A DNA stretch of 64,000 bases from Patescibacteria group bacterium (GTDB taxonomy: Bacteria > Patescibacteriota > Patescibacteriia > UBA10025 > JAHIVO01). Of the stretch, positions 2,057 to 29,203 are shown one piece after another; position 1 is the stretch's first letter, and every line of letters begins with the position of its first letter. The DNA is taken from contig JAZDEZ010000021.1 of the NCBI GenBank assembly GCA_043808365.1, positions 64,403-128,402 on the forward strand, in the 5' to 3' direction. The translations under genes were made by a program, and so were the position numbers. The notes below the pieces were generated by a model, which searched no databases, had not been told where the DNA came from, and saw only the letters and a program-made list of their open reading frames with translations.

Positions 2057-3610
2057 ATGACCAATCAAAAATATTTTCTCTACGCCCGCAAGTCCACTGA
2101 TGTAGAGGACAAACAAGTATTGAGTATTGAAGCGCAGATCGTGGAATTGCGCGCCTTTGCTAAAAAAGAAGGTCTAACAATCATTGAGGAATTAATTGAA
2201 AAGAAGTCGGCCAAAGTGCCCGGGCGCAAAATATTTAATGCCATGCTAGATAGAATAGTAAAAGGCGAAGCGCATGGCATTGTCAGCTGGCACCCAGACC
2301 GTCTGGCGCGCAATTCAGTGGATGGCGGGCGAATTATTTATTTGCTGGATACCGGCCAGCTTGCGGCTTTGAAATTTCCACAGTTCTGGTTTGAAAGCAC
2401 TCCGCAAGGCAAGTTCATGCTCAATATCGCCTTTGGGCAGAGTAAGTATTACATTGATTCATTAAGTGAAAACGTGAAACGAGGCTTGCGCCAAAAAGCT
2501 AGACGCGGAGAGTATTCAGGCATCGCTCCGATTGGCTACATTAACGACTTACGCACCAAAACTGTCGTAGTAGATAAAAAACAAGCCGAGATTGTCCAAC
2601 AGGCATTTGAACTGTACGCCCAGGGCAATTCTCGCCTAGAGGACATTTCCAGCTTTTTGGCGCGGCACAATATTACCTCGCGCAATGGTAAGTCACTAAA
2701 ACGAGACAGAATTTCTTTTATCCTTTCCAATCCTTTTTACGTTGGATTGTTTAGTTATGCTAAAGAACTCTATGAGGGCAAGCACCAGCCAGTCATCTCA
2801 AAGAAAATTTTTGACCAAGTGCAGGCAATACTGAAACAGAAAGGCAGACCGCACCACAAAACCAAGAATGAACCCCAACCCTATTGCGGTCTGCTGCGGT
2901 GTGCCACCTGCGGAATGGGCATAACTGGCGAAAACAAAGTGAAGCACCAAAAGAATGGCAACGAGCACCACTATATCTACTACCGGTGTACAAAAAAGAA
3001 CAAAGTAATTAAATGCAATGAGCCACATATCCGGCAGGAAGCAATGGATGAGCAAATCACACCGCTTATACAAAAATTTTCTTTGCGATCAGATTGGGCG
3101 GACAGCTTGTTACATCAACTAGAGCAAGACACTACAAAGTCCGCCCACTCCTCTGTTGCTTTTGTTCAAGAGACGAAAAACATCATTACCGCAATCGAAA
3201 CCAAGCTCCAGCGGCTACTGGATAGCTACCTGGAGCAGGATATTGACCGTGAAGCCTACCTAACGGCTAAGGCAGGACTCTTGAGCGAGAAAAAGACCCT
3301 GACGGAGAAAATAGTCCGTCTTGAACAAAAGCGGACTGGCTGGGTCGAACCGATGCGGAAATGGATACATACGGCAGCTCTGCTGCCGAAAATCGCGCGG
3401 GAGAGCGACCTTAATTCAAAAAAGGTCGCGGCCAAAGAAATCTTTGGCTCGAACCTCGTCCTGTCTTTCGGGAAAGTCCATCCTGTTCTAAATTTTCGCC
3501 CACAAAAACACTGGTTTGCCATATCCAGTGCCAGAGAGAAAATCGGGGAAATTTCACAAAGTTTGGTGATGGTAGCCCCACGGGGAATCGAACCCCGATT
3601 GTTGGCTTGA
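2057..3610 (+). CDS. large serine recombinase (resolvase/invertase N-domain + recombinase domain + zinc ribbon + coiled coil)
   Basis: 'YARKSTDVEDKQVLSIEAQ' catalytic Ser region, 'HPDRLARN', Cys cluster 'CATCG...YYRCTKKNKVIKC', and a C-terminal coiled coil. The ORF only stops inside the antisense of tRNA-Glu, so the last ~13 codons may not be native. Confidence 0.9.
   Translation: MTNQKYFLYARKSTDVEDKQVLSIEAQIVELRAFAKKEGLTIIEELIEKKSAKVPGRKIFNAMLDRIVKGEAHGIVSWHPDRLARNSVDGGRIIYLLDTGQLAALKFPQFWFESTPQGKFMLNIAFGQSKYYIDSLSENVKRGLRQKARRGEYSGIAPIGYINDLRTKTVVVDKKQAEIVQQAFELYAQGNSRLEDISSFLARHNITSRNGKSLKRDRISFILSNPFYVGLFSYAKELYEGKHQPVISKKIFDQVQAILKQKGRPHHKTKNEPQPYCGLLRCATCGMGITGENKVKHQKNGNEHHYIYYRCTKKNKVIKCNEPHIRQEAMDEQITPLIQKFSLRSDWADSLLHQLEQDTTKSAHSSVAFVQETKNIITAIETKLQRLLDSYLEQDIDREAYLTAKAGLLSEKKTLTEKIVRLEQKRTGWVEPMRKWIHTAALLPKIARESDLNSKKVAAKEIFGSNLVLSFGKVHPVLNFRPQKHWFAISSAREKIGEISQSLVMVAPRGIEPRLLA
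3391..3574. repeat. right arm of inverted repeat (3' end of recombinase gene up to the tRNA-Glu CCA end)
   Basis: Reverse complement matches 1870-2010 (see left arm). Confidence 0.8.
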
Positions 3611-3644
3611 AAAGCCAATGTCCTAACCATTAGACGATAGGGCC
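3570..3644 (-). tRNA. tRNA-Glu (anticodon UUC), CCA encoded
   Basis: Hand-folded cloverleaf: GGCCCTA/TC/GTCT-AATGGTTA-GGAC/A/TTGGC-TTTTCAA-GCCAA/CAAT/CGGGG-TTCGATT-CCCCG/TGGGGCT/A/CCA. Length is 75 nt. Confidence 0.9.
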
Positions 3645-3880
3645 GTGAAATTCTTCAGATAACGCTCAATGTGGCCAGATTTTTTAATCTTGAACTCTTT
3701 AACTCTTGCCAGTGAAAGTGTAGGGAACTTCTCTGTATGAATAAGTTTATAAGGTATGAAAGACTTTGTCGAACGAACTTTGCCTTGGTTATGTTTTATA
3801 ATGCGTTCATTGACATCCTCAGAAACTCCAACGTAGTACCTTCTTGCCTTAAAGCTTTTAATGATATAAAGATAAAACAT
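3600..3880 (-). mobile_element. putative GIY-YIG cassette carrying a replacement 5' segment of tRNA-Glu (boundaries approximate)
   Basis: The segment between the intact tRNA T-arm and the decayed duplicate of tRNA positions 1-~45 consists of the GIY-YIG ORF plus the functional tRNA 5' part. Confidence 0.35.
3623..3880 (-). CDS. GIY-YIG nuclease family protein (small, URI-domain type)
   Basis: 85 aa. 'FYLYIIKS...RYYVGVSEDVNERIIKHNQG' matches the GIY...YIG...R...H/N core of the family. The last 22 nt overlap the 5' end of tRNA-Glu. Confidence 0.8.
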   Translation of the reverse strand: MFYLYIIKSFKARRYYVGVSEDVNERIIKHNQGKVRSTKSFIPYKLIHTEKFPTLSLARVKEFKIKKSGHIERYLKNFTALSSNG

Positions 3881-4035
3881 ATATGTTGAAGGCTTGCCCC
3901 GCCGTACGGCGGGGTCCCGCCGAATGGCGGGAAAAAGCCAATGTCCCGCCCGCTTCGCCTGAAGCGAATCTTTGGCGGACGGGCCTAACCATTTCCGCCG
4001 AAGGCGGATCCGCCTTTGGCGGAAGGCATAGGGCC
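3881..4035 (-). pseudogene. decayed duplicate of tRNA-Glu positions 1 to ~45 interrupted by GC hairpins
   Basis: Minus-strand read: GGCCCTATG[hairpins 3994-4023]AATGGTTAGG[hairpin ~3947-3983]ACATTGGCTTTT[hairpins 3897-3932]CAAGCC. The D-stem 'CGTCT' is lost and no T-arm or 3' acceptor is present. It shares the upstream 'GTGA' flank with the intact gene. Confidence 0.7.
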
Positions 4036-4100
4036 GTGATTTGAAAATAGTACGGGTTTTTTACGGGATGGTCAAGAGGCAGCCGACCCTAGCATTATAA

Positions 4101-4129
4101 TTGTCAAAGCGGTTTTTGTATACTATACT
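4101..4129 (+). promoter_or_regulatory. sigma70-like promoter candidate for the Hsp20 gene
   Basis: TTGTCA (4101-4106), 17-nt spacer, TATACT (4124-4129), 30 nt upstream of the ATG. Confidence 0.35.
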
Positions 4130-4158
4130 AAAGGCATTAAAATAGTAATTTTTTAGCC

Positions 4159-4647
4159 ATGCCGATCCCACTCGAAGCCAAAAAAACCGCCACCCAGACT
4201 GGCAGTGTTGAATATAACTTTTTTAAGGGCGCGTCTGATAAAGTGGCGAAAACGCCGTTGTCCGAGCTGAAGAAATCCGCGGGCCAGGCTGATTGGCTGG
4301 ACGGGGACGATTATTCCGGACAGCTCGCCGTGGACGTATACCAAACCAACGAAGATATCGTCATCAAGTCCACCATTGCCGGGGTGCGCCCGGAAGACAT
4401 CGACATCGGCATCAATAATGACATGGTCACCATCCGCGGGAAACGCGACAAAGACCATGAGGTGACGGACGAAAACTATTATTACCGCGAATGCTATTGG
4501 GGCGGATTTTCCCGTTCCATCATCCTGCCGTGCGAGGTCAAAGTGGACCGGATCAAGGCGGCGATGAAAAATGGCGTGCTCACGATCATTTTGCCAAAAG
4601 CCACAAAAGTCAGCAAAGTAACCGTTGTCAAAGTAAAGGAGGAATAA
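4159..4647 (+). CDS. small heat-shock protein, Hsp20/alpha-crystallin family
   Basis: 'LAVDVYQTNEDIVIKSTIAGVRPEDIDIGINNDMVTIRGKR...GGFSRSIILPCEVKVDRIKAAMKNGVLTIILPK' is a canonical alpha-crystallin domain. Confidence 0.9.
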   Translation: MPIPLEAKKTATQTGSVEYNFFKGASDKVAKTPLSELKKSAGQADWLDGDDYSGQLAVDVYQTNEDIVIKSTIAGVRPEDIDIGINNDMVTIRGKRDKDHEVTDENYYYRECYWGGFSRSIILPCEVKVDRIKAAMKNGVLTIILPKATKVSKVTVVKVKEE

Positions 4648-4651
4648 ACAT

Positions 4652-4882
4652 ATGGCGTCTCCAGACATAGATTACTCGGTCGCTACTACGGTCAAGCGGT
4701 TTGAGGGGAAGTTCGCCGTGCTGGAAACCTCGGACCGCCAGTCAGTCCGCTGGCCGATAAAGAATCTGCCGGATGACGTCCAAGAGGGCGCGTCCGTACG
4801 GCTCCTGCTCTCATCGGCTAAAACCGACCAGGAGACTCGGGAGAAGCTGGCCCGGACGGTTATTAATTCTTTGCTCGCGTAA
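4652..4882 (+). CDS. small DUF3006-like protein
   Basis: 76 aa. 'VKRFEGKFAVLETSD...WPIKNLPDDVQEGASV' follows the DUF3006 pattern as I remember it. It starts 5 nt after the Hsp20 stop. Confidence 0.5.
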   Translation: MASPDIDYSVATTVKRFEGKFAVLETSDRQSVRWPIKNLPDDVQEGASVRLLLSSAKTDQETREKLARTVINSLLA

Positions 4883-4887
4883 ATTAT

Positions 4888-5292
4888 ATGGCTGTGAAGA
4901 TAATAAAAAAGCCGGCGGTAAAAGTTAAAAGACCGGTGCCGATGAAAAGTTTGCCGCCTGTTGAGCCGCATTTCTTGTTGCCCGCGCCAAAACCGCATAC
5001 GGCAATATTGCTCGCCGTCGCCCTTTTGCCGGTTTTAGTTGTTCTGCTCTATGCCCTCTACCCCTGGTTCTCGCTGTCAAGCGTTGCTTCCCGTAATTTA
5101 GTATTAGAAGCGACATTTTTGTTCCTTGTCGGGCTGGTGATATTGGCAATATATATTGCCAAGCTTTTTTATGACTTGTTAATGAAGAAATTGGATGCCG
5201 CCGAGAAAGACAAGCATGTCATCAGCCTGATGATGCTTTTCTCCCTCTCTATTATAATTTTTTCCGCAGTCCTCTATTTAATCCAGCCCTAG
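4888..5292 (+). CDS. hypothetical membrane protein
   Basis: 134 aa with a basic N-terminus and three hydrophobic helices. Tightly packed with its neighbours. Confidence 0.55.
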   Translation: MAVKIIKKPAVKVKRPVPMKSLPPVEPHFLLPAPKPHTAILLAVALLPVLVVLLYALYPWFSLSSVASRNLVLEATFLFLVGLVILAIYIAKLFYDLLMKKLDAAEKDKHVISLMMLFSLSIIIFSAVLYLIQP

Positions 5293-5333
5293 CGGACGCT
5301 TAAGCCAGGCCGTGTGAGTTATGGGATTGCCCC

Positions 5334-7331
5334 ATGTCCAAAAAAATCACCTTGCATGACAAGAAACCGGTCTCAGCCGCTATTGCCAACCGGCACATTT
5401 TTTTAGTGCTCGCCTGGTCCGCGGGCGGCGTTATAGTCCTGGCCGGTCTTATATTTGGGTTTGATGCGTATGTCGGTGACCGTATTCCGCCCGGGACTCG
5501 TGTTGGGCGCCAATATATCGGCGGACTGAGCGCGCCACAGGCTAAGGACCAATTAAGCAAGGCGGCATCAGCGGAGATAGATCGGGGGCTGTCCGTGCGT
5601 TTCCAGTCAGCGGATTATCCCATCCCATCCACCATTGACGATGAATCAAACCCGGATTTAGCCACTACGCCGCTATATGCTTATGATATCGAAACAACGG
5701 TCGCGTCAATCACGGCGGCCGGCCGGCAGTTCAATCCGTTTGAAAAAGTTTATTATGCGATTTTTGGCTGGAATATCAAGCCCTCAATCAGCGTAAATCG
5801 CGGGTCGTTAGGGATTTTATTGCAGGATAAATTAGGCAGTCTTGAATCGCCGGCAAAAAACGCTCAATTAACCGTCGGCGCCGATGGGGCGCTCAGTATC
5901 CAGCCGGCCACGGCCGGCCAGGCATTTCATTATGAATCAATCATTGACCAATTGATTGAGCGGTTGAATGCTTTTTCCAGCGATGCGGTGGCTATTGGCC
6001 TCGAACAGGACATCCCGGGTATCACTGAGCTGGAAGGAGGGAAGCTTTTGCCGCTGGCGCGGCAGGTTATTGATACTGCCCCGTTTACGCTTATCTATGG
6101 CCAGAAAAACTGGCCGCTCAAGCGAGACCAGGCTATCAGCTGGGTGGAATTTCAGATTATTAATAAACAAGCCACCATTGGGCTGAATATACAAAAACTT
6201 ACCGCCTATCTTGAGACTATTGCTCAGGAAGTGAATGTCCAGGTCAGCGAAGGCAGGTTTGCCATGAACGGCGGCAAGGTGACGTCATTTTCCCCTTCCC
6301 AGGCTGGCGTGGAAGTCCAGGTGCCAGAAACAATAGAGTTGATTAATGAAAAGATCCGCCAGGTTGGCATCAAGGAAATCGATTTACTGGTCAAGGAAAC
6401 ACAGCCGCAGGTAGCCGTGGGCGACGCGAATGATTTAGGCGTGAATGAATTGATCGGCGTCGGCCATTCAAATTTCAAAGGGAGCCCCGCTAACCGCCGG
6501 CACAACATCAAGACCGGCGCTGATAAGCTTGATGGCATTTTAATCAAGCCGGATGAGGAATTTTCCCTGGTCAGGACGCTTGGCGCGATTGACGCGTCGA
6601 CCGGGTATCTAACCGAGCTGGTGATCAAAGGCAATAAAACCACGCCGGAATTCGGCGGCGGCCTGTGCCAGATCGGGACAACCACCTTCCGTGCCGCGCT
6701 TGACGCCGGCCTGCCGATACTGGAGCGGGTCAATCATTCGTACCGCGTGTCGTATTATGAGCCGGCTGGTACGGACGCGACGATTTACGACCCAAAACCT
6801 GATTTCCGCTTTAAGAATGACACCGGGCATTACATATTATTCACCGCGGAAATTAAAGGCGATGACCTGTACTTCCGTTTTTACGGCACGCCAGACGGCC
6901 GCACGGTGGCGCAGACCAAGCCGCGCATTTATAACCAAAAAAGCCCTGCTCCAAAAAAGACGATCGAGACCACCGACCTGGCGCCCGGAAAAATAAAGTG
7001 CACCGAAAAGGCGCATGTCGGCGCGGACGCGGAATTCACCCGCACGATAACGTACGCAGATGGCACAAAGAAAGTGGACGCGTTCAAGAGCCATTACAAG
7101 CCCTGGCAGGAAGTATGCCTGGTCGGCGTGGCAAAGACTGCGCCTGCCCCGAAACCCGCCACGAACAGCAATACGAATGCCAATCCTAAAATTAATACGA
7201 ATACTGCCGTTAATGCCAATAGTAATGCAAACGTCAATACGAATTCGGCAATCAACACAGCGCCGGCGGCTGATCCAAATACTAACGCCGTCACGCCGGA
7301 GGTTCTTCCCTCGCCGGACACTGGAATATAA
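5334..7331 (+). CDS. VanW-domain protein with N-terminal TM anchor and Asn/Thr/Ala-rich tail
   Basis: 'GGGLCQIGTTTFRAALDAGLPILERVNHSYRVSYYEPAGTDATIYDPKPDFRFKNDTGHYILF' is the VanW core. The tail is 'NSNTNANPKINTNTAVNANSNANVNTNS'. Confidence 0.85.
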   Translation: MSKKITLHDKKPVSAAIANRHIFLVLAWSAGGVIVLAGLIFGFDAYVGDRIPPGTRVGRQYIGGLSAPQAKDQLSKAASAEIDRGLSVRFQSADYPIPSTIDDESNPDLATTPLYAYDIETTVASITAAGRQFNPFEKVYYAIFGWNIKPSISVNRGSLGILLQDKLGSLESPAKNAQLTVGADGALSIQPATAGQAFHYESIIDQLIERLNAFSSDAVAIGLEQDIPGITELEGGKLLPLARQVIDTAPFTLIYGQKNWPLKRDQAISWVEFQIINKQATIGLNIQKLTAYLETIAQEVNVQVSEGRFAMNGGKVTSFSPSQAGVEVQVPETIELINEKIRQVGIKEIDLLVKETQPQVAVGDANDLGVNELIGVGHSNFKGSPANRRHNIKTGADKLDGILIKPDEEFSLVRTLGAIDASTGYLTELVIKGNKTTPEFGGGLCQIGTTTFRAALDAGLPILERVNHSYRVSYYEPAGTDATIYDPKPDFRFKNDTGHYILFTAEIKGDDLYFRFYGTPDGRTVAQTKPRIYNQKSPAPKKTIETTDLAPGKIKCTEKAHVGADAEFTRTITYADGTKKVDAFKSHYKPWQEVCLVGVAKTAPAPKPATNSNTNANPKINTNTAVNANSNANVNTNSAINTAPAADPNTNAVTPEVLPSPDTGI

Positions 7332-14653: not shown

Positions 14654-15030
14654 CTTCTTGCCGGAGAAAATGTAGTTTTTATGTCGGAATGCGGTTCAGT
14701 CTAGAAGTGTTTTGATTCTGCTAGCTTGCGCAGCCCCGCTAGTCAGCGGGACTTCCAGCCGGAATCGGGAGTAGTTAATTTTCGGAGTGATTTTCAGATG
14801 AGCAAAGTTTTGATTCTGCTGGCTTGGGCAGCCCCGCCATCCGGCGGGACTTCCAGCCGGAGTCCAAGGTGATTTGCTCACAGAATGTTTTTCAACTGAG
14901 TAGTGTCTTTATCCTACTAGCTTGGGCAGCCCCGCCATCCGGCGGGACTTCTTGCCGGAGAAAATGTAATTTTTATGTCGGAATGCGGTTCAGTCTAGAA
15001 GTGTTTTGATTCTGCTAGCTTGCGCAGCAA
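14654..15030. repeat. tandem array, 98-bp period (about 4 units), starting inside the 3' end of the 14990..15658 gene
   Basis: Minus-strand TGA stops (written tca on the + strand) occur at 14696, 14794, 14892 and 14990, exactly 98 nt apart. Each is followed on the + strand by 12 conserved codons and, in the three orphan units, by a CCCGCC-ATCC-GGCGGG-type hairpin. 14654-14735 repeats 14948-15029 with 1 mismatch. Confidence 0.85.
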
Positions 15031-27437: not shown

Positions 27438-27800
27438 CTATATGATTGCCTTGATTTTTTTTACGTAATCTTCAAGCTTCCAGTCTGATTTTTCGATATA
27501 CTCGCAATGCCACTCGTTCCGCACTTCAGCTTCTTTTTGGGGGTCATGCATATTCGTCATGACGATGATCGGGACATCTTTGCCCCATTCATCCATGCGC
27601 ACTTTCCGCAGCAAGGTCAATCCATGAAGTTTAGGCATCAGGATGTCTAATAATATCAGGTCTGGGTGGCTGGCGATGGCCATGGCCAGCCCCGCCTCCC
27701 CGTCGGGAGCGCTAGATACGCCATACCCCTCGAGAGTGAGTCGATGTGATAATAATTTGACCATCCCCGGCTCATCCTCTACGATAAGTATTTTTTTCAT
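27438..27800 (-). CDS. single-domain response regulator (CheY-like receiver)
   Basis: 'ILIVEDE', 'PDLILLDILMPKLHG', 'PIIVMTN'. No output domain. Confidence 0.85.
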   Translation of the reverse strand: MKKILIVEDEPGMVKLLSHRLTLEGYGVSSAPDGEAGLAMAIASHPDLILLDILMPKLHGLTLLRKVRMDEWGKDVPIIVMTNMHDPQKEAEVRNEWHCEYIEKSDWKLEDYVKKIKAII

Positions 27801-27828
27801 AGTATATTATATATTTAAATTATTATTA

Positions 27829-27901
27829 TGGACCCTACCGGGCTCGAACCGGTCACCTCCGCGATGCAAACGCGGCGCTCTACCAAATGAGCTAAGGGCC
27901 C
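27829..27901 (-). tRNA. tRNA-Ala (anticodon UGC), no encoded CCA
   Basis: GGGCCCT/TA/GCTC-ATTTGGTA-GAGC/G/CCGCG-TTTGCAT-CGCGG/AGGTG/ACCGG-TTCGAGC-CCGGT/AGGGTCC/A. The G3:U70 Ala identity pair is present. Confidence 0.9.
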
Positions 27902-27924
27902 ATGTTGTAATCATATCCACAATC

Positions 27925-28125
27925 GTTGTTTGGGGCGCTCTTCCGGGACGTTCGAACCTGTTCATTATGTCCCGACGATCGCTTTCAGCGATGTCGGGAT
28001 CCCGACTTTACGTCGGGACTAATGGCCCAGAGTGTACTCATTATACTAACATTGTTTGAGGGGTGTCTGTCACAGCCGTTCAGATTTGTCCATTATATCC
28101 CGATTATGCGTCGGGACTAACAGCT
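27925..28125 (-). pseudogene. tRNA-derived fragments interrupted by TCCCGAC...GTCGGGA hairpins
   Basis: Minus-strand reads: GGGAGCTGTTAG[TCCCGACGCATAATCGGGA]TATAATGG... and GGGCCATTAG[TCCCGACGTAAAGTCGGGA][TCCCGACATCGCTGAAAGCGATCGTCGGGA]CATAATGAACAGGTTCGAACGTCCC... Neither yields a foldable cloverleaf after hairpin removal. Confidence 0.55.
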
Positions 28126-28132
28126 CCCGGAT

Positions 28133-28384
28133 TTATTGATTTACCGTCTCGATTGAATTACTGAATATCGCGCGGAGGATTGAAGACAGTATTCCTGACA
28201 TGTAGAGGAATGACAGGACAATGGCAGATATGCCAATGAGCTTATACAACAGTCGTGTGCCGCCTTCCGTGCCGAGGTGTGCTTCTGCCCAAGCAACGCG
28301 TCCGAAATTGTCCATGATCCACTCAGCCTTCCAGGTGATGAGGAAGCCGACGCCGATGATGATAATGCCTAAGAAGTATTTCAT
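28133..28384 (-). CDS. small membrane protein
   Basis: 83 aa with two to three TM helices ('YFLGIIIIGVGFLITW', 'LIGISAIVLSFLYMSGILSSIL'). Confidence 0.5.
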   Translation of the reverse strand: MKYFLGIIIIGVGFLITWKAEWIMDNFGRVAWAEAHLGTEGGTRLLYKLIGISAIVLSFLYMSGILSSILRAIFSNSIETVNQ

Positions 28385-28452
28385 TGTAGTTTAGTTATGC
28401 TGGTGAGGCGGACCCCCCGCCCGCTTCGCCTTGCGCCTTATAATGATATCAA

Positions 28453-28487
28453 TGGGCTCGATAGGAGTTGAACCTATGACCTTGCGG
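28453..28487 (-). pseudogene. orphan tRNA 3' half (variable loop, T-arm, acceptor 3' strand)
   Basis: CCGCAAGGTC/ATAGG-TTCAACT-CCTAT/CGAGCCC/A. The region where the 5' half should be is replaced by GC hairpins at 28488-28545, and no GGGCTCG partner strand is present. Confidence 0.55.
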
Positions 28488-28569
28488 ACCCGCCTGCCTT
28501 CGCCATGGACGATGAAGGACTCTCCGCCAGAGGCGGACCTCGCCCTACTTTGATTAATTTTATTTATTG

Positions 28570-28635
28570 TGGCGGGGGAACCTTCAACCTCTCGGATGTA
28601 AACCGAACGCTCTAACCATTGAGCTAATCGTCCCC
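28570..28635 (-). pseudogene. tRNA-Val(UAC)-like copy lacking a proper T-arm and 3' acceptor
   Basis: GGACGAT/TA/GCTC-AATGGTTA-GAGC/G/TTCGG-TTTACAT-CCGAG, then a degenerate GGTTGAAGGTTCCCCCGCCA. Confidence 0.55.
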
Positions 28636-28710
28636 GGCAATGGCGGGCAGATGTCCCGCTCTATTTCATTTTTTTCGAATTGTATCGCGGGATCCTCGCC
28701 CGTCGAGGGC

Positions 28711-28929
28711 GGGATAAACCGAATGTTCTAACCGACTGAGTCCCGATGTTCCGACTAGTGTCGGAAATCGGGATCCCGACATCGCCTGCGGCGATCGTCG
28801 GGACTAATCACCCATACAGGTAAATGCGCTCGGAAGTCCCGCCGTTCCGTTTAACTGCGGGCGGGTAACTAATTCCAACGTTTCAGTCGGAATCCCGACC
28901 GCTTCGCGTCGGGACTGAGCTAATCTTGC
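28711..28929 (-). pseudogene. two tRNA-Val-like 5' fragments interrupted by hairpins
   Basis: GGGTGATTAG[two hairpins, 28741-28803]CTCAGTCGGTTAGAACATTCGGTTTAT... and GCAAGATTAGCTCAG[hairpins 28870-28913]... Confidence 0.55.
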
Positions 28930-28933
28930 TTTA

Positions 28934-29009
28934 TGGTGGGCAACGAGGGATTCGAACCCCCGACCCTACGGATGTAAACCGTATGCTCTAACCGCTGAGC
29001 TAGTTGCCC
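28934..29009 (-). tRNA. tRNA-Val (anticodon UAC), CCA encoded
   Basis: GGGCAAC/TA/GCTC-AGCGGTTA-GAGC/A/TACGG-TTTACAT-CCGTA/GGGTC/GGGGG-TTCGAAT-CCCTC/GTTGCCC/A/CCA. Confidence 0.9.
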
Positions 29010-29022
29010 TTACTTTTTAATT

Positions 29023-29095
29023 TGCGCCCGGAGGGAATTGAACCCCCAGCCTTCTGGTTCGAAGCCAGACGCTCTATCCATTGAGCCACGGGCGC
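29023..29095 (-). tRNA. tRNA-Arg (anticodon UCG), no encoded CCA
   Basis: GCGCCCG/TG/GCTC-AATGGATA-GAGC/G/TCTGG-CTTCGAA-CCAGA/AGGCT/GGGGG-TTCAATT-CCCTC/CGGGCGC/A. Confidence 0.9.
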
Positions 29096-29203
29096 TTGAT
29101 GAGCGCTGATAAAGTACCATAGTTTTAGAGGGCAATCAATGCCTTTAAGCAATAAAACCGCCTTACTATATGGCGGCCTTAAGTGTTTCCTGGCAATCTC
29201 CAA

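Follow-up and report, generated by a model that had tools for sequence, protein, structure and literature searches.

A stretch of 64,000 nucleotides (nt) from a Kerfeldbacteria-like Patescibacteria bacterium (contig JAZDEZ010000021.1), called the window throughout, contains a cluster of transfer RNA (tRNA) genes and tRNA-like pieces at 27828-29095 as well as a tRNA-Glu cassette at 3400-4036; all parts of both are on the minus strand and are given in window coordinates. We propose, with moderate confidence, that a selfish family of tRNA-targeting cassettes repeatedly invaded the resident tRNA-Val(UAC) and tRNA-Ala(UGC) genes of the cluster and left a layered field of scars. The cassettes have GC-rich stems with the conserved base TCCCGAY/RTCGGGA, CCCGCC/GGCGGG or TCCGCC/GGCGGA, and typically two such hairpins stand side by side (a twin hairpin). 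In several fuller cassettes the loops carry an open reading frame (ORF) of about 80 amino acids (aa) made of a GIY-YIG domain only, a complete tRNA of the target's identity, or both.

We found insertions at tRNA positions 10|11, 13|14, about 16|17, 21|22, 35|36, 55|56 and 56|57, where 10|11 stands for the junction between G10 and C11, 56|57 for that between C56 and G57, and so on. The insertions were precise, without target duplication. The invaded gene persists as a 5' and a 3' piece, later insertions nest in earlier ones and the outer pieces decay.

The comparison set comprised about 190 related and metagenomic loci, labelled L001 onward. ORF83, a small protein gene of the cluster, served as a synteny anchor. 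tRNAs were called with ARAGORN and the Rfam covariance models, and interrupted genes were re-called after in-silico deletion of the insert.

Hairpins within tRNA-like sequences of the window

The intact tRNAs and the pieces of the cluster are as follows.

29095-29023, minus strand: intact tRNA-Arg(UCG), heading the cluster (ARAGORN; Rfam, 75.2 bits)
29009-28934, minus strand: Val1, intact tRNA-Val(UAC), GGGCAAC...GTTGCCCACCA (ARAGORN; Rfam, 69.4 bits)
28930-28814, minus strand: unit A, a decayed Val 5' piece, about positions 1-26 (sequence, hairpin list)
28813-28651, minus strand: unit B, a Val 5' piece, positions 1-38 (sequence, folds)
28650-28634, minus strand: leader arm, CTGCCCGCCATTGCCGG (repeat search; kept in L006)
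28633-28506, minus strand: Val2, the resident tRNA-Val(UAC), GGACGAT...ATCGTCCA, complete but split at 56|57 (in-silico removal, ARAGORN)
28577-28523, minus strand: T-loop insert of Val2, hairpins CCCCGCC-(AT-rich loop)-GGGCGAGG and TCCGCC-TCT-GGCGGA (sequence, folds)
28505-28488, minus strand: trailer arm, TGGCGAAGGCAGGCGGGT (repeat search; nearly identical in L006)
28487-28453, minus strand: orphan Val 3' piece, positions 39-73, ..CGAGCCCA, of GGGCTCG type (comparison with L014 and L006)
28437-28415 and 28410-28401, minus strand: relics of the outermost layer, right arm GGCGCAAGGCGAAGCGGGCGGGG and ..CGCCTCACCA (spliced alignment)
28128-28031, minus strand: unit D, a degenerate Ala 5' piece, GGGAGCTG-TTAG, single hairpin 28116-28098 at 10|11, TATAATGG...CACCCCTCAAACAA
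28028-27903, minus strand: unit C, tandem duplicate of unit D, GGGCCAT-TAG with twin hairpin 28018-27970 at 10|11, then CATAATGAAC...CCCCAAACAA
27902-27828, minus strand: intact tRNA-Ala(UGC) (ARAGORN; Rfam, 62.7 bits)

The pattern TCCCGA-N(2-30)-TCGGGA had six matches in the window, all of them inside 27970-28914, compared to 0.18 expected; none of 100 shuffles reached six. An earlier note on this DNA, made without database searches, had described these hairpins and three tRNA-like 5' ends interrupted immediately after G10, and the sequence bears this out. The ends GGGTGAT-TAG, GGGCCAT-TAG and GGGAGCTG-TTAG are cut exactly at 10|11: hairpins 28803-28774 and 28773-28741 come after GGGTGATTAG (28813-28804), with CTCAGTCGGTTAGAAC next in line; hairpins 28018-28000 and 27999-27970 come after GGGCCATTAG (28028-28019); and hairpin 28116-28098 comes after GGGAGCTGTTAG (28128-28117). 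A fourth insertion, placed by the same note after CTCAG in a D-loop, is also there, with GCTCAG (28920-28915) standing before hairpins 28914-28893 and 28892-28873.

The observation that the hairpins often come as adjacent pairs agrees with the folding of these pairs, which gave two adjacent stems with z = -6.7, -7.1 and -3.6 against shuffled sequence. Insert lengths in the 27902-28933 region varied from 19 to 63 nt. Deletion of the insert gave back the exact tRNA sequence at 10|11, 35|36 and 56|57, with no target-site duplication. The Ala, Val and Arg genes that had been singled out as normal tRNAs are indeed intact (62.7-75.2 bits). Val1 is an additional copy with respect to the closest relatives, e.g., the empty-site relative L015 has the GGACGAT-type Val only, and it probably supplies the Val function.

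Layers around the tRNA-Val(UAC) gene

Removal of 55 nt (28577-28523, at T-loop 56|57) from Val2 left a perfect 73-nt tRNA-Val(UAC), called by ARAGORN, in which GGACGAT (28633-28627) pairs perfectly with ATCGTCC (28513-28507), and GAAGG with CCTTC. The piece at 28570-28635, in which the earlier note saw a Val(UAC)-like copy whose T-arm was destroyed, is actually this complete gene with a T-loop insert. Its orthologues are uninterrupted in L002 (11327-11399; PilT 94% identical; T-loop TTCGAGT) and in L015, the closest relative by ORF83; therefore, the 55-nt insert is a precise gain or loss without target duplication. The TCCGCC-NNN-GGCGGA module of this insert reappears at T-loop 55|56 in L012 and in the pseudo-Glu copy of the window. 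Val2 is enclosed by complementary leader and trailer arms, as found in the repeat search. This pairing, the 35|36 hairpin pair of unit B and the tRNA-Glu cassette had all been missed by the earlier note.

ARAGORN, when run with introns allowed, joined the 5' part of Val2 to the orphan 3' half across a "92-nt intron". We rejected this call because the true partner of the Val2 5' part is ATCGTCC at 28513-28507, reached with the 55-nt T-loop insert. Given four Val queries, a home-made spliced aligner returned a clean Val2; for the other types it stitched opportunistic short exons together, and the tool was then set aside.

Around Val2, layer 1 can be read as unit B (positions 1-38) and the orphan piece (positions 39-73) of one gene split at 38|39. 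Unit B starts with GGGTGAT-TA-G, the twin hairpin 28803-28741 at 10|11 and CTC-AGTCGGTTA-GAAC-A-TTCGG-TTTA, while its second hairpin pair (28714-28693 and 28692-28654) sits in the anticodon loop at 35|36, i.e., TTTA|..|CAT. The module is homologous in L006, L008 and L010. The orphan 3' half, which the earlier note had recognized as such, has its intact version in the inner tRNA of L014 (2748-2821). The acceptor sequences of unit B and of the orphan piece pair at only 4 of 7 positions.

Layer 2 can be read as unit A (positions 1 to about 26) together with the right-arm relic, with Val1 as an extra intact copy. The order in unit A is GCAAGAT-TA-GCTC-AG, twin hairpin 28914-28873, TTAGTTA, arm hairpin CCCGCC..GGCGGG (28865-28838), ACTTCC-GAGC-G and a TTTAC relic, a layout that matches the outer genes of L014, L025 and L030. 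A right arm of the 28437-28415 type stands before GAGC and the remaining outer tRNA in L006, L012, L014 and L030. The outer gene to which the 28437-28401 relics belong is otherwise deleted.

Nesting, decay and turnover among relatives

The order PilT, Arg, Val, ORF83, Ala was conserved among the relatives, with spacers varying from about 20 nt to more than 1 kb. In L014, an insert of about 190 nt in the D-loop of one Val gene contains a second, complete Val gene (GGGCTCG..CGAGCCCA) within complementary arms. L010 and L030 are likewise nested, with more inserts at 35|36 and in the T-arm, and L006 (PilT 82% identical) has a layout in common with the window. The 10|11 insertion was also observed in Val-like and Ala-like sequences of the distant relatives L028 and L020. 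In one of the two readings of the earlier note, the element was inactivating duplicated tRNA genes; the target copies do not look like earlier duplicates, and appear to be halves of genes split by a larger cassette that brings its own tRNA.

The outer copies showed decay, for example G53 to A in L014, U8 to A and G53 to A in L010, and a T-stem with 3 of 5 pairs and an acceptor with 6 of 7 in L030. Partial copies scored 30-38 bits with the Rfam tRNA model, compared to 50-77 bits for intact tRNAs. We also observed a fast turnover: L001 and L002 (PilT at least 94% identical) and L015 have entirely different content at the Val/Ala site.

Partial Arg-like 5' pieces with GC-rich D-loop hairpins were seen upstream of the intact tRNA-Arg in L006 (11160-11250), L012 (11125-11260) and L002 (11160-11215). 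Therefore, Arg(UCG) is also a target; the Arg gene of the window is clean. In some partial tRNA copies of L017 (2045-2140) and L022 (300-400 and 675-730), the anticodon arm is wholly replaced by a stable GTCGCC-(ATAG or TACG)-GCGAC tetraloop stem with no anticodon. This replacement was found in Val- and Ala-derived pieces of different species.

Full cassettes with a GIY-YIG gene and a tRNA

A cassette with its cargo is present elsewhere in the window.

4036-3400, minus strand: tRNA-Glu cassette with pseudo-Glu 5' piece, GIY-YIG ORF, intact tRNA-Glu and 3' relic (tblastn, sequence, Pfam)
4036-3891, minus strand: pseudo-Glu 5' piece with D-loop twin hairpin 4024-3994, arm hairpin 3983-3945 and 35|36 twin hairpin 3932-3897
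3880-3650, minus strand: GIY-YIG ORF, 77 aa (Pfam PF01541, E=1.5e-10)
3644-3570, minus strand: intact tRNA-Glu(UUC) (ARAGORN and Rfam)
about 3460-3405, minus strand: Glu 3' relic with T-loop twin hairpin (sequence)

The arm hairpin of the pseudo-Glu piece has GGCGAAGCGGGCGGG in common with the Val region. Junction ORFs in L002, L017, L020, L021, L022, L025 and L028 are GIY-YIG domains as well. The GIY-YIG ORFs matched PF01541 above its cut-off, with E values from 1.5e-10 to 1.6e-20, and their 77-86 aa are covered by the catalytic domain alone. Among the 26 such ORFs in all the DNA compared, 21 had an intact tRNA immediately downstream, no more than about 50 nt past the stop codon, and four had one immediately upstream, three of the latter with a hairpin-cut partial copy downstream. 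The ORFs are preceded by tRNA pieces 1-35 or 1-42, and then follow 36-74, 43-74 or 49-75. When 410 ORFs within 1.2 kb of twin hairpins were clustered, GIY-YIG was the only recurrent protein family (12 loci); neither a Y1 (HUH) transposase nor a RAYT recurred.

In the metagenomic contig L118, two adjacent stems interrupt an outer Ala gene exactly at 35|36; the first encloses the GIY-YIG ORF and the second an intact tRNA-Ala. Arms enclose the ORF in L021 and L189, and abut the inner tRNA in L131 (17 bp) and L121 (12 bp). We also note that the L118 cassettes (3180-6300) lie beside the 16S ribosomal RNA (rRNA) gene at 4049-5557, where one splits tRNA-Ala at 35|36 and another adjoins tRNA-Thr; therefore, the genes around the rRNA gene are invaded too.

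The Ala side of the cluster

A degenerate Ala 5' piece is present twice in tandem, as units D and C (repeat search), and has a single homologue in L001 (11590-11750). Of 30 positions in the second hairpin of unit C, 27 agree with the hairpin that the distant L028 has at this site. In a test of descent from the resident Ala allele of the relatives, which we regard as weak, the outcome was clear for D (15 vs. 5 identities) and marginal for C (17 vs. 16). The other idea of the earlier note, that an interrupted pseudo-tRNA was itself amplified, holds locally for D and C.

The 5' 37-mer of the window tRNA-Ala is identical in eight independent, partly distant species (L002, L008, L010, L020, L028, L031, L034 and L050); the very close relatives L001 and L015 have a quite different Ala allele. 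The shared 37-mer is compatible with horizontal gene replacement or with strong conservation.

Census of twin hairpins

Metagenomes were searched with the pattern TCCCGAY-N-RTCGGGATCCCGAY, which does not contain any tRNA sequence, and at least 120 matches were obtained. The figures below refer to the 81, 82 or 83 twin hairpins among the matches listed. TAG preceded 16 of 82 twin hairpins (19.5%) compared to 2.0% of controls (p~1e-11). The exact 10|11 context TAG|YTC was found in 9 of 82, compared to 0.06% of controls. Besides TAG|, the contexts GCT|, GTTC| and GGTT| are used for insertion, and the four tRNA junctions together hold 24 of 82 twin hairpins compared to 0.4% of controls, an enrichment of about 70-fold. 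These counts lend statistical support to the miniature element with a preference for the tRNA D-arm that the earlier note proposed as one of two readings. The preference extends beyond the D-arm: insertion makes equal use of the anticodon loop (35|36) and of the T-loop (55|56, 56|57).

A match to the tRNA profile within 70 nt was found for 20 of 81 elements and for 2 of 249 control positions. The match spans the junction for 12 of 81 elements and 1 of 249 controls, at positions 10, 12-15, 22, 45 and 54-56. The tRNA identities hit included Val, Ala, Arg, Phe, Thr, Glu, Ile, Gly, Trp, Met and Pro. An intact tRNA was located within 300 nt of 19 of the 20 tRNA-flanked elements, and all the loci studied closely have, beside the interrupted tRNA, a second copy of it that is intact. 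Within the window lineage the hairpins occur only in the context of tRNA copies.

When the 83 twin hairpins were removed in silico, none of them turned out to lie in a tRNA that ARAGORN could then call. Re-calling after hairpin removal, the check proposed in the earlier note, was successful for Val2. We also deleted all GC-rich hairpins, single or paired, from 1.14 Mb of DNA with hundreds of intact tRNAs; the result was one clean case of a complete but interrupted tRNA, again Val2. Otherwise this screen behaved like random deletions (57 of 30,826 vs. 33 of 30,819), with mostly artefacts at the ends of intact tRNAs. The G-U pairs in the stems, 15 in the sense and 14 in the antisense orientation, showed no bias to the tRNA-sense strand.

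A scan of viral contigs returned 10 twin hairpins. In L085, L097, L107, L123 and L143, many twin hairpins without a tRNA flank lie within short AT-rich tandem repeats (e.g., caatttc or aaatcca motifs).

Proposed mechanism and its weak points

A predicted GIY-YIG nuclease would break uninvaded tRNA alleles, and repair would copy the cassette into them. The invaded gene would no longer yield a tRNA and the cargo tRNA would take over its role; a spare tRNA makes sense only if the insertion kills the target. The short twin hairpins would be cargo-less derivatives of cassettes, either collapsed or miniature. In the cluster, Val1 would be the working Val gene, and the nuclease gene would have been lost from the Val/Ala region. 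The cassette is present in some close relatives and absent from others, which is indirect evidence for such cleavage and copying. Type IV pili can serve in DNA uptake, and type IV pilus genes are located directly beside the Val/Ala locus; such uptake would bring the alleles together. As a speculation, the GIY-YIG protein may recognize DNA structure, as tRNA genes and the hairpins can both extrude stem-loops. We suspect this because it has no DNA-binding domain and because the insertion sites are loops or junctions of stem-loops.

Several observations weigh against this proposal. About 75% of the metagenomic twin hairpins have no recognizable tRNA flank, so the hairpin is not exclusively tRNA-associated outside the window lineage and may also spread, or persist, independently. 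Over the 62 nt that hold the trailer arm and the orphan piece, the identity of the window to L006 reaches 96.8%, with PilT at only 82%, which is more than would be expected of a neutral relic. Some outer genes are still perfect (the outer Val(GAC) of L126 and Val2 of the window). Only some of the cassettes have clearly complementary arms around their cargo; the test of arm complementarity was significant for a subset only, with a control inflated because the arms share motifs across loci.

Doubts also concern the nuclease. A GIY-YIG protein of about 80 aa without a DNA-binding domain is unlike the characterized homing endonucleases, and its closest relatives with a solved structure belong to UPF0213, a family without a known function. 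The ORFs are weakly similar to homing-endonuclease families, e.g., TIGR01453 was matched below its cut-off and over profile positions 2-74 of 215 only. A relaxed tblastn search of 27800-29150 returned noise only, with no GIY-YIG ORF or remnant in the Val/Ala region. In L131, the inner tRNA and the split outer copy have the same anticodon-arm sequence, so the logic of a sequence-specific "immune allele" does not obviously hold. The nuclease activity, the target site and the mobility of the cassette are all putative.

If the proposal is true, Patescibacteria carry a widespread selfish element that invades an essential gene without an intron or intein and brings a spare copy along. It would explain the fast change of tRNA loci between close relatives in reduced genomes, the horizontal replacement of tRNA alleles, and the unannotated clusters of GC-rich hairpins and "orphan" tRNA pieces. 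It would also provide the first biological context for small UPF0213-type GIY-YIG proteins and suggest that they act on structured DNA such as tRNA-gene stem-loops. The interrupted copies confuse tRNA finders and could pass for introns. The word "graveyard", used in the earlier note, is fair for most of the pieces, and the interpretation given there was about half correct.

Alternative explanations

The twin hairpins could mark sites for RNA-level processing, by an endonuclease and a ligase or in the manner of RNase III, such that introns or split tRNAs give rise to functional molecules. The insertions are exact and without target duplication, they sit in loops and junctions of the tRNA fold, and 56|57, a known non-canonical intron site of archaeal tRNAs, is in use. 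The position 35|36 is the site of self-splicing introns in Patescibacteria tRNAs (PMC13011429). Two identical stems would make a two-fold symmetric substrate, Val2 and the outer Val(GAC) of L126 become perfect cloverleaves once the insert is removed, and the 96.8% conservation of the trailer arm and orphan piece in L006 also speaks for function. On the other hand, none of the 83 twin hairpins was in a tRNA callable after removal, there was a single clean interrupted gene in the 1.14 Mb, the interrupted genes had an intact copy of the same tRNA beside them, and in outer copies both universal nucleotides and pairs of the stems are gone. The G-U pairs have no strand bias, neither bulge-helix-bulge geometry nor a ribozyme known to Rfam was found, and there would be no point in carrying a spare tRNA along with an insert that is spliced out. 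Taken together, these results make a splicing system unlikely, and we consider this explanation quite improbable, in line with the earlier note, which had rejected functional intron-containing tRNAs. A more specific version, a bacterial counterpart of archaeal split or multi-intron tRNAs in which split genes are transcribed and cut at the paired stems, the arms then holding the parts together unless these are rejoined, and in which the processing factor is the solo GIY-YIG protein or another enzyme, seems to us about as improbable.

A passive origin would not need any targeting: palindromes resembling repetitive extragenic palindromic (REP) sequences or miniature inverted-repeat transposable elements (MITEs) would survive in dispensable DNA, the partial tRNAs would come from unrelated duplication or recombination, and the GIY-YIG genes would be housekeeping neighbours. 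The AT-rich, non-tRNA flanks of about 75% of the metagenomic twin hairpins, the absence of a strand bias, the simple tandem duplication in units C and D, and the existence of the UPF0213 family, of unknown function, outside this context all fit this view. Survival bias alone would not fix the position, though, and the same positions (10|11, 13|14, 55|56 and 56|57) recur across many tRNA identities at about 70-fold over controls. Neither the cargo (ORF, tRNA) within the stems, nor the agreement of 5' and 3' split points, e.g., 1-35 with 36-74, nor the restriction of hairpins to tRNA copies in the window lineage is expected of passive accumulation, which we judge unlikely. Finally, the pieces could be scars of integrase islands or prophages at tRNA attachment sites that were later deleted; integration into tRNA genes is a classic event and is known to leave partial duplicates of the tRNA behind. 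There was, however, no integrase or recombinase in the ORF list of the region or recurrently near the elements, the duplicates are mostly nested 5' pieces and not 3' direct repeats, and the inserts are tens to a few hundred nt long with junctions inside the D-arm and loops. This origin is largely refuted and hardly credible.

Other features of the window

The gene between tRNA-Val and tRNA-Ala is a bystander.

28384-28133, minus strand: ORF83, a predicted membrane protein of 83 aa (alignment)

ORF83 was found between tRNA-Val(UAC) and tRNA-Ala(UGC) in at least 62 Patescibacteria species, with many invariant residues, e.g., WK..W, GR..WAE and EGGTR. It matched no Pfam family, and exact-protein look-ups of the window PilT and ORF83 gave no match.

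The hairpin scan also showed, at 14734-14947 on the minus strand, three copies of ..GGAAG-TCCCGCC-GGAT-GGCGGGG-CTGCCCAAGC.. at 98-nt spacing; these are probably a tandem repeat within a coding region, unrelated to the tRNA elements. A weak match to YrlA (Y RNA-like) at 28397-28506 was judged to be due to chance (E=0.52; 19.4 bits, where the gathering score is 69). Scanning for promoters and terminators gave no more than it did on shuffles, and the TATAAT boxes in units C and D carry no claim.

Comparison with known systems

Group I introns at tRNA position 35/36 have been described in the same phylum; they are 184-894 nt long and their endonucleases are of the HNH, LAGLIDADG and PD-(D/E)XK types, not GIY-YIG (Nakagawa et al. 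2026, PMC13011429). The 35|36 site (unit B, pseudo-Glu, L118, L021) and the escape of the genes from standard tRNA finders are features in common. The inserts described here differ in that they are simple hairpins of 19-63 nt or an ORF with a tRNA, and in that D-arm and T-loop sites are used as well. Searches for the RF00028 group I core were negative for the whole window with the gathering threshold, for 27700-29200 even with E<=10, and for 15 key loci. Removal of the insert yields a complete tRNA for Val2 only and not for the 83 twin hairpins.

Archaeal tRNAs can have short inserts at many non-canonical positions, several per gene, and tRNA halves flanked by complementary arms, and in both respects the cassettes are similar. 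In the archaeal bulge-helix-bulge, the exon-intron junctions have a 4-bp helix with a 3-nt bulge on either side. The predicted folds, as judged by eye and with no formal motif search run, have no bulges, and the stems start at the first and last inserted base. Furthermore, the host here is bacterial, and the interrupted copies are redundant and decayed.

REP sequences, bacterial interspersed mosaic elements (BIMEs) and IS200/IS605-derived elements are small GC-rich palindromes, often paired, that insert without target duplication and prefer a short motif. The paired palindromes, the lack of target duplication and the preferred NTAG motif resemble them; unlike them, the cassettes have several target motifs, all of which are tRNA landmarks, and their hairpin loops can hold genes. 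MITEs derived from DDE transposons differ by their target-site duplication, which is not seen at 10|11, 35|36 or 56|57. As in integrative elements that rebuild a tRNA, the invader compensates for the damage with tRNA sequence and partial tRNA copies remain. Here, however, a whole tRNA is brought and not a 3' segment, there is no integrase, the size is 0.1-0.5 kb and the copies are nested.

The Seg GIY-YIG genes of phage T4 are free-standing, SegB within a tRNA cluster, and have been linked to preferential inheritance and to rearrangement or amplification (PMC2988022; PMC13096335). They resemble the genes described here as GIY-YIG genes among tRNA genes without an intron. The differences are that the present proteins, predicted nucleases of cellular Patescibacteria, consist of a catalytic domain of about 80 aa only, and that their gene lies inside a split tRNA with twin hairpins and a replacement tRNA. 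From each of these known systems the arrangement departs in a defining feature. Full-text literature searches gave no description of an arrangement of twin hairpins, GIY-YIG gene and spare tRNA, and the cassette has apparently not been described so far. For a putative selfish, nuclease-associated element that targets a conserved gene, the twin-hairpin architecture, the cargo in the loops and the replacement tRNA are unusual.

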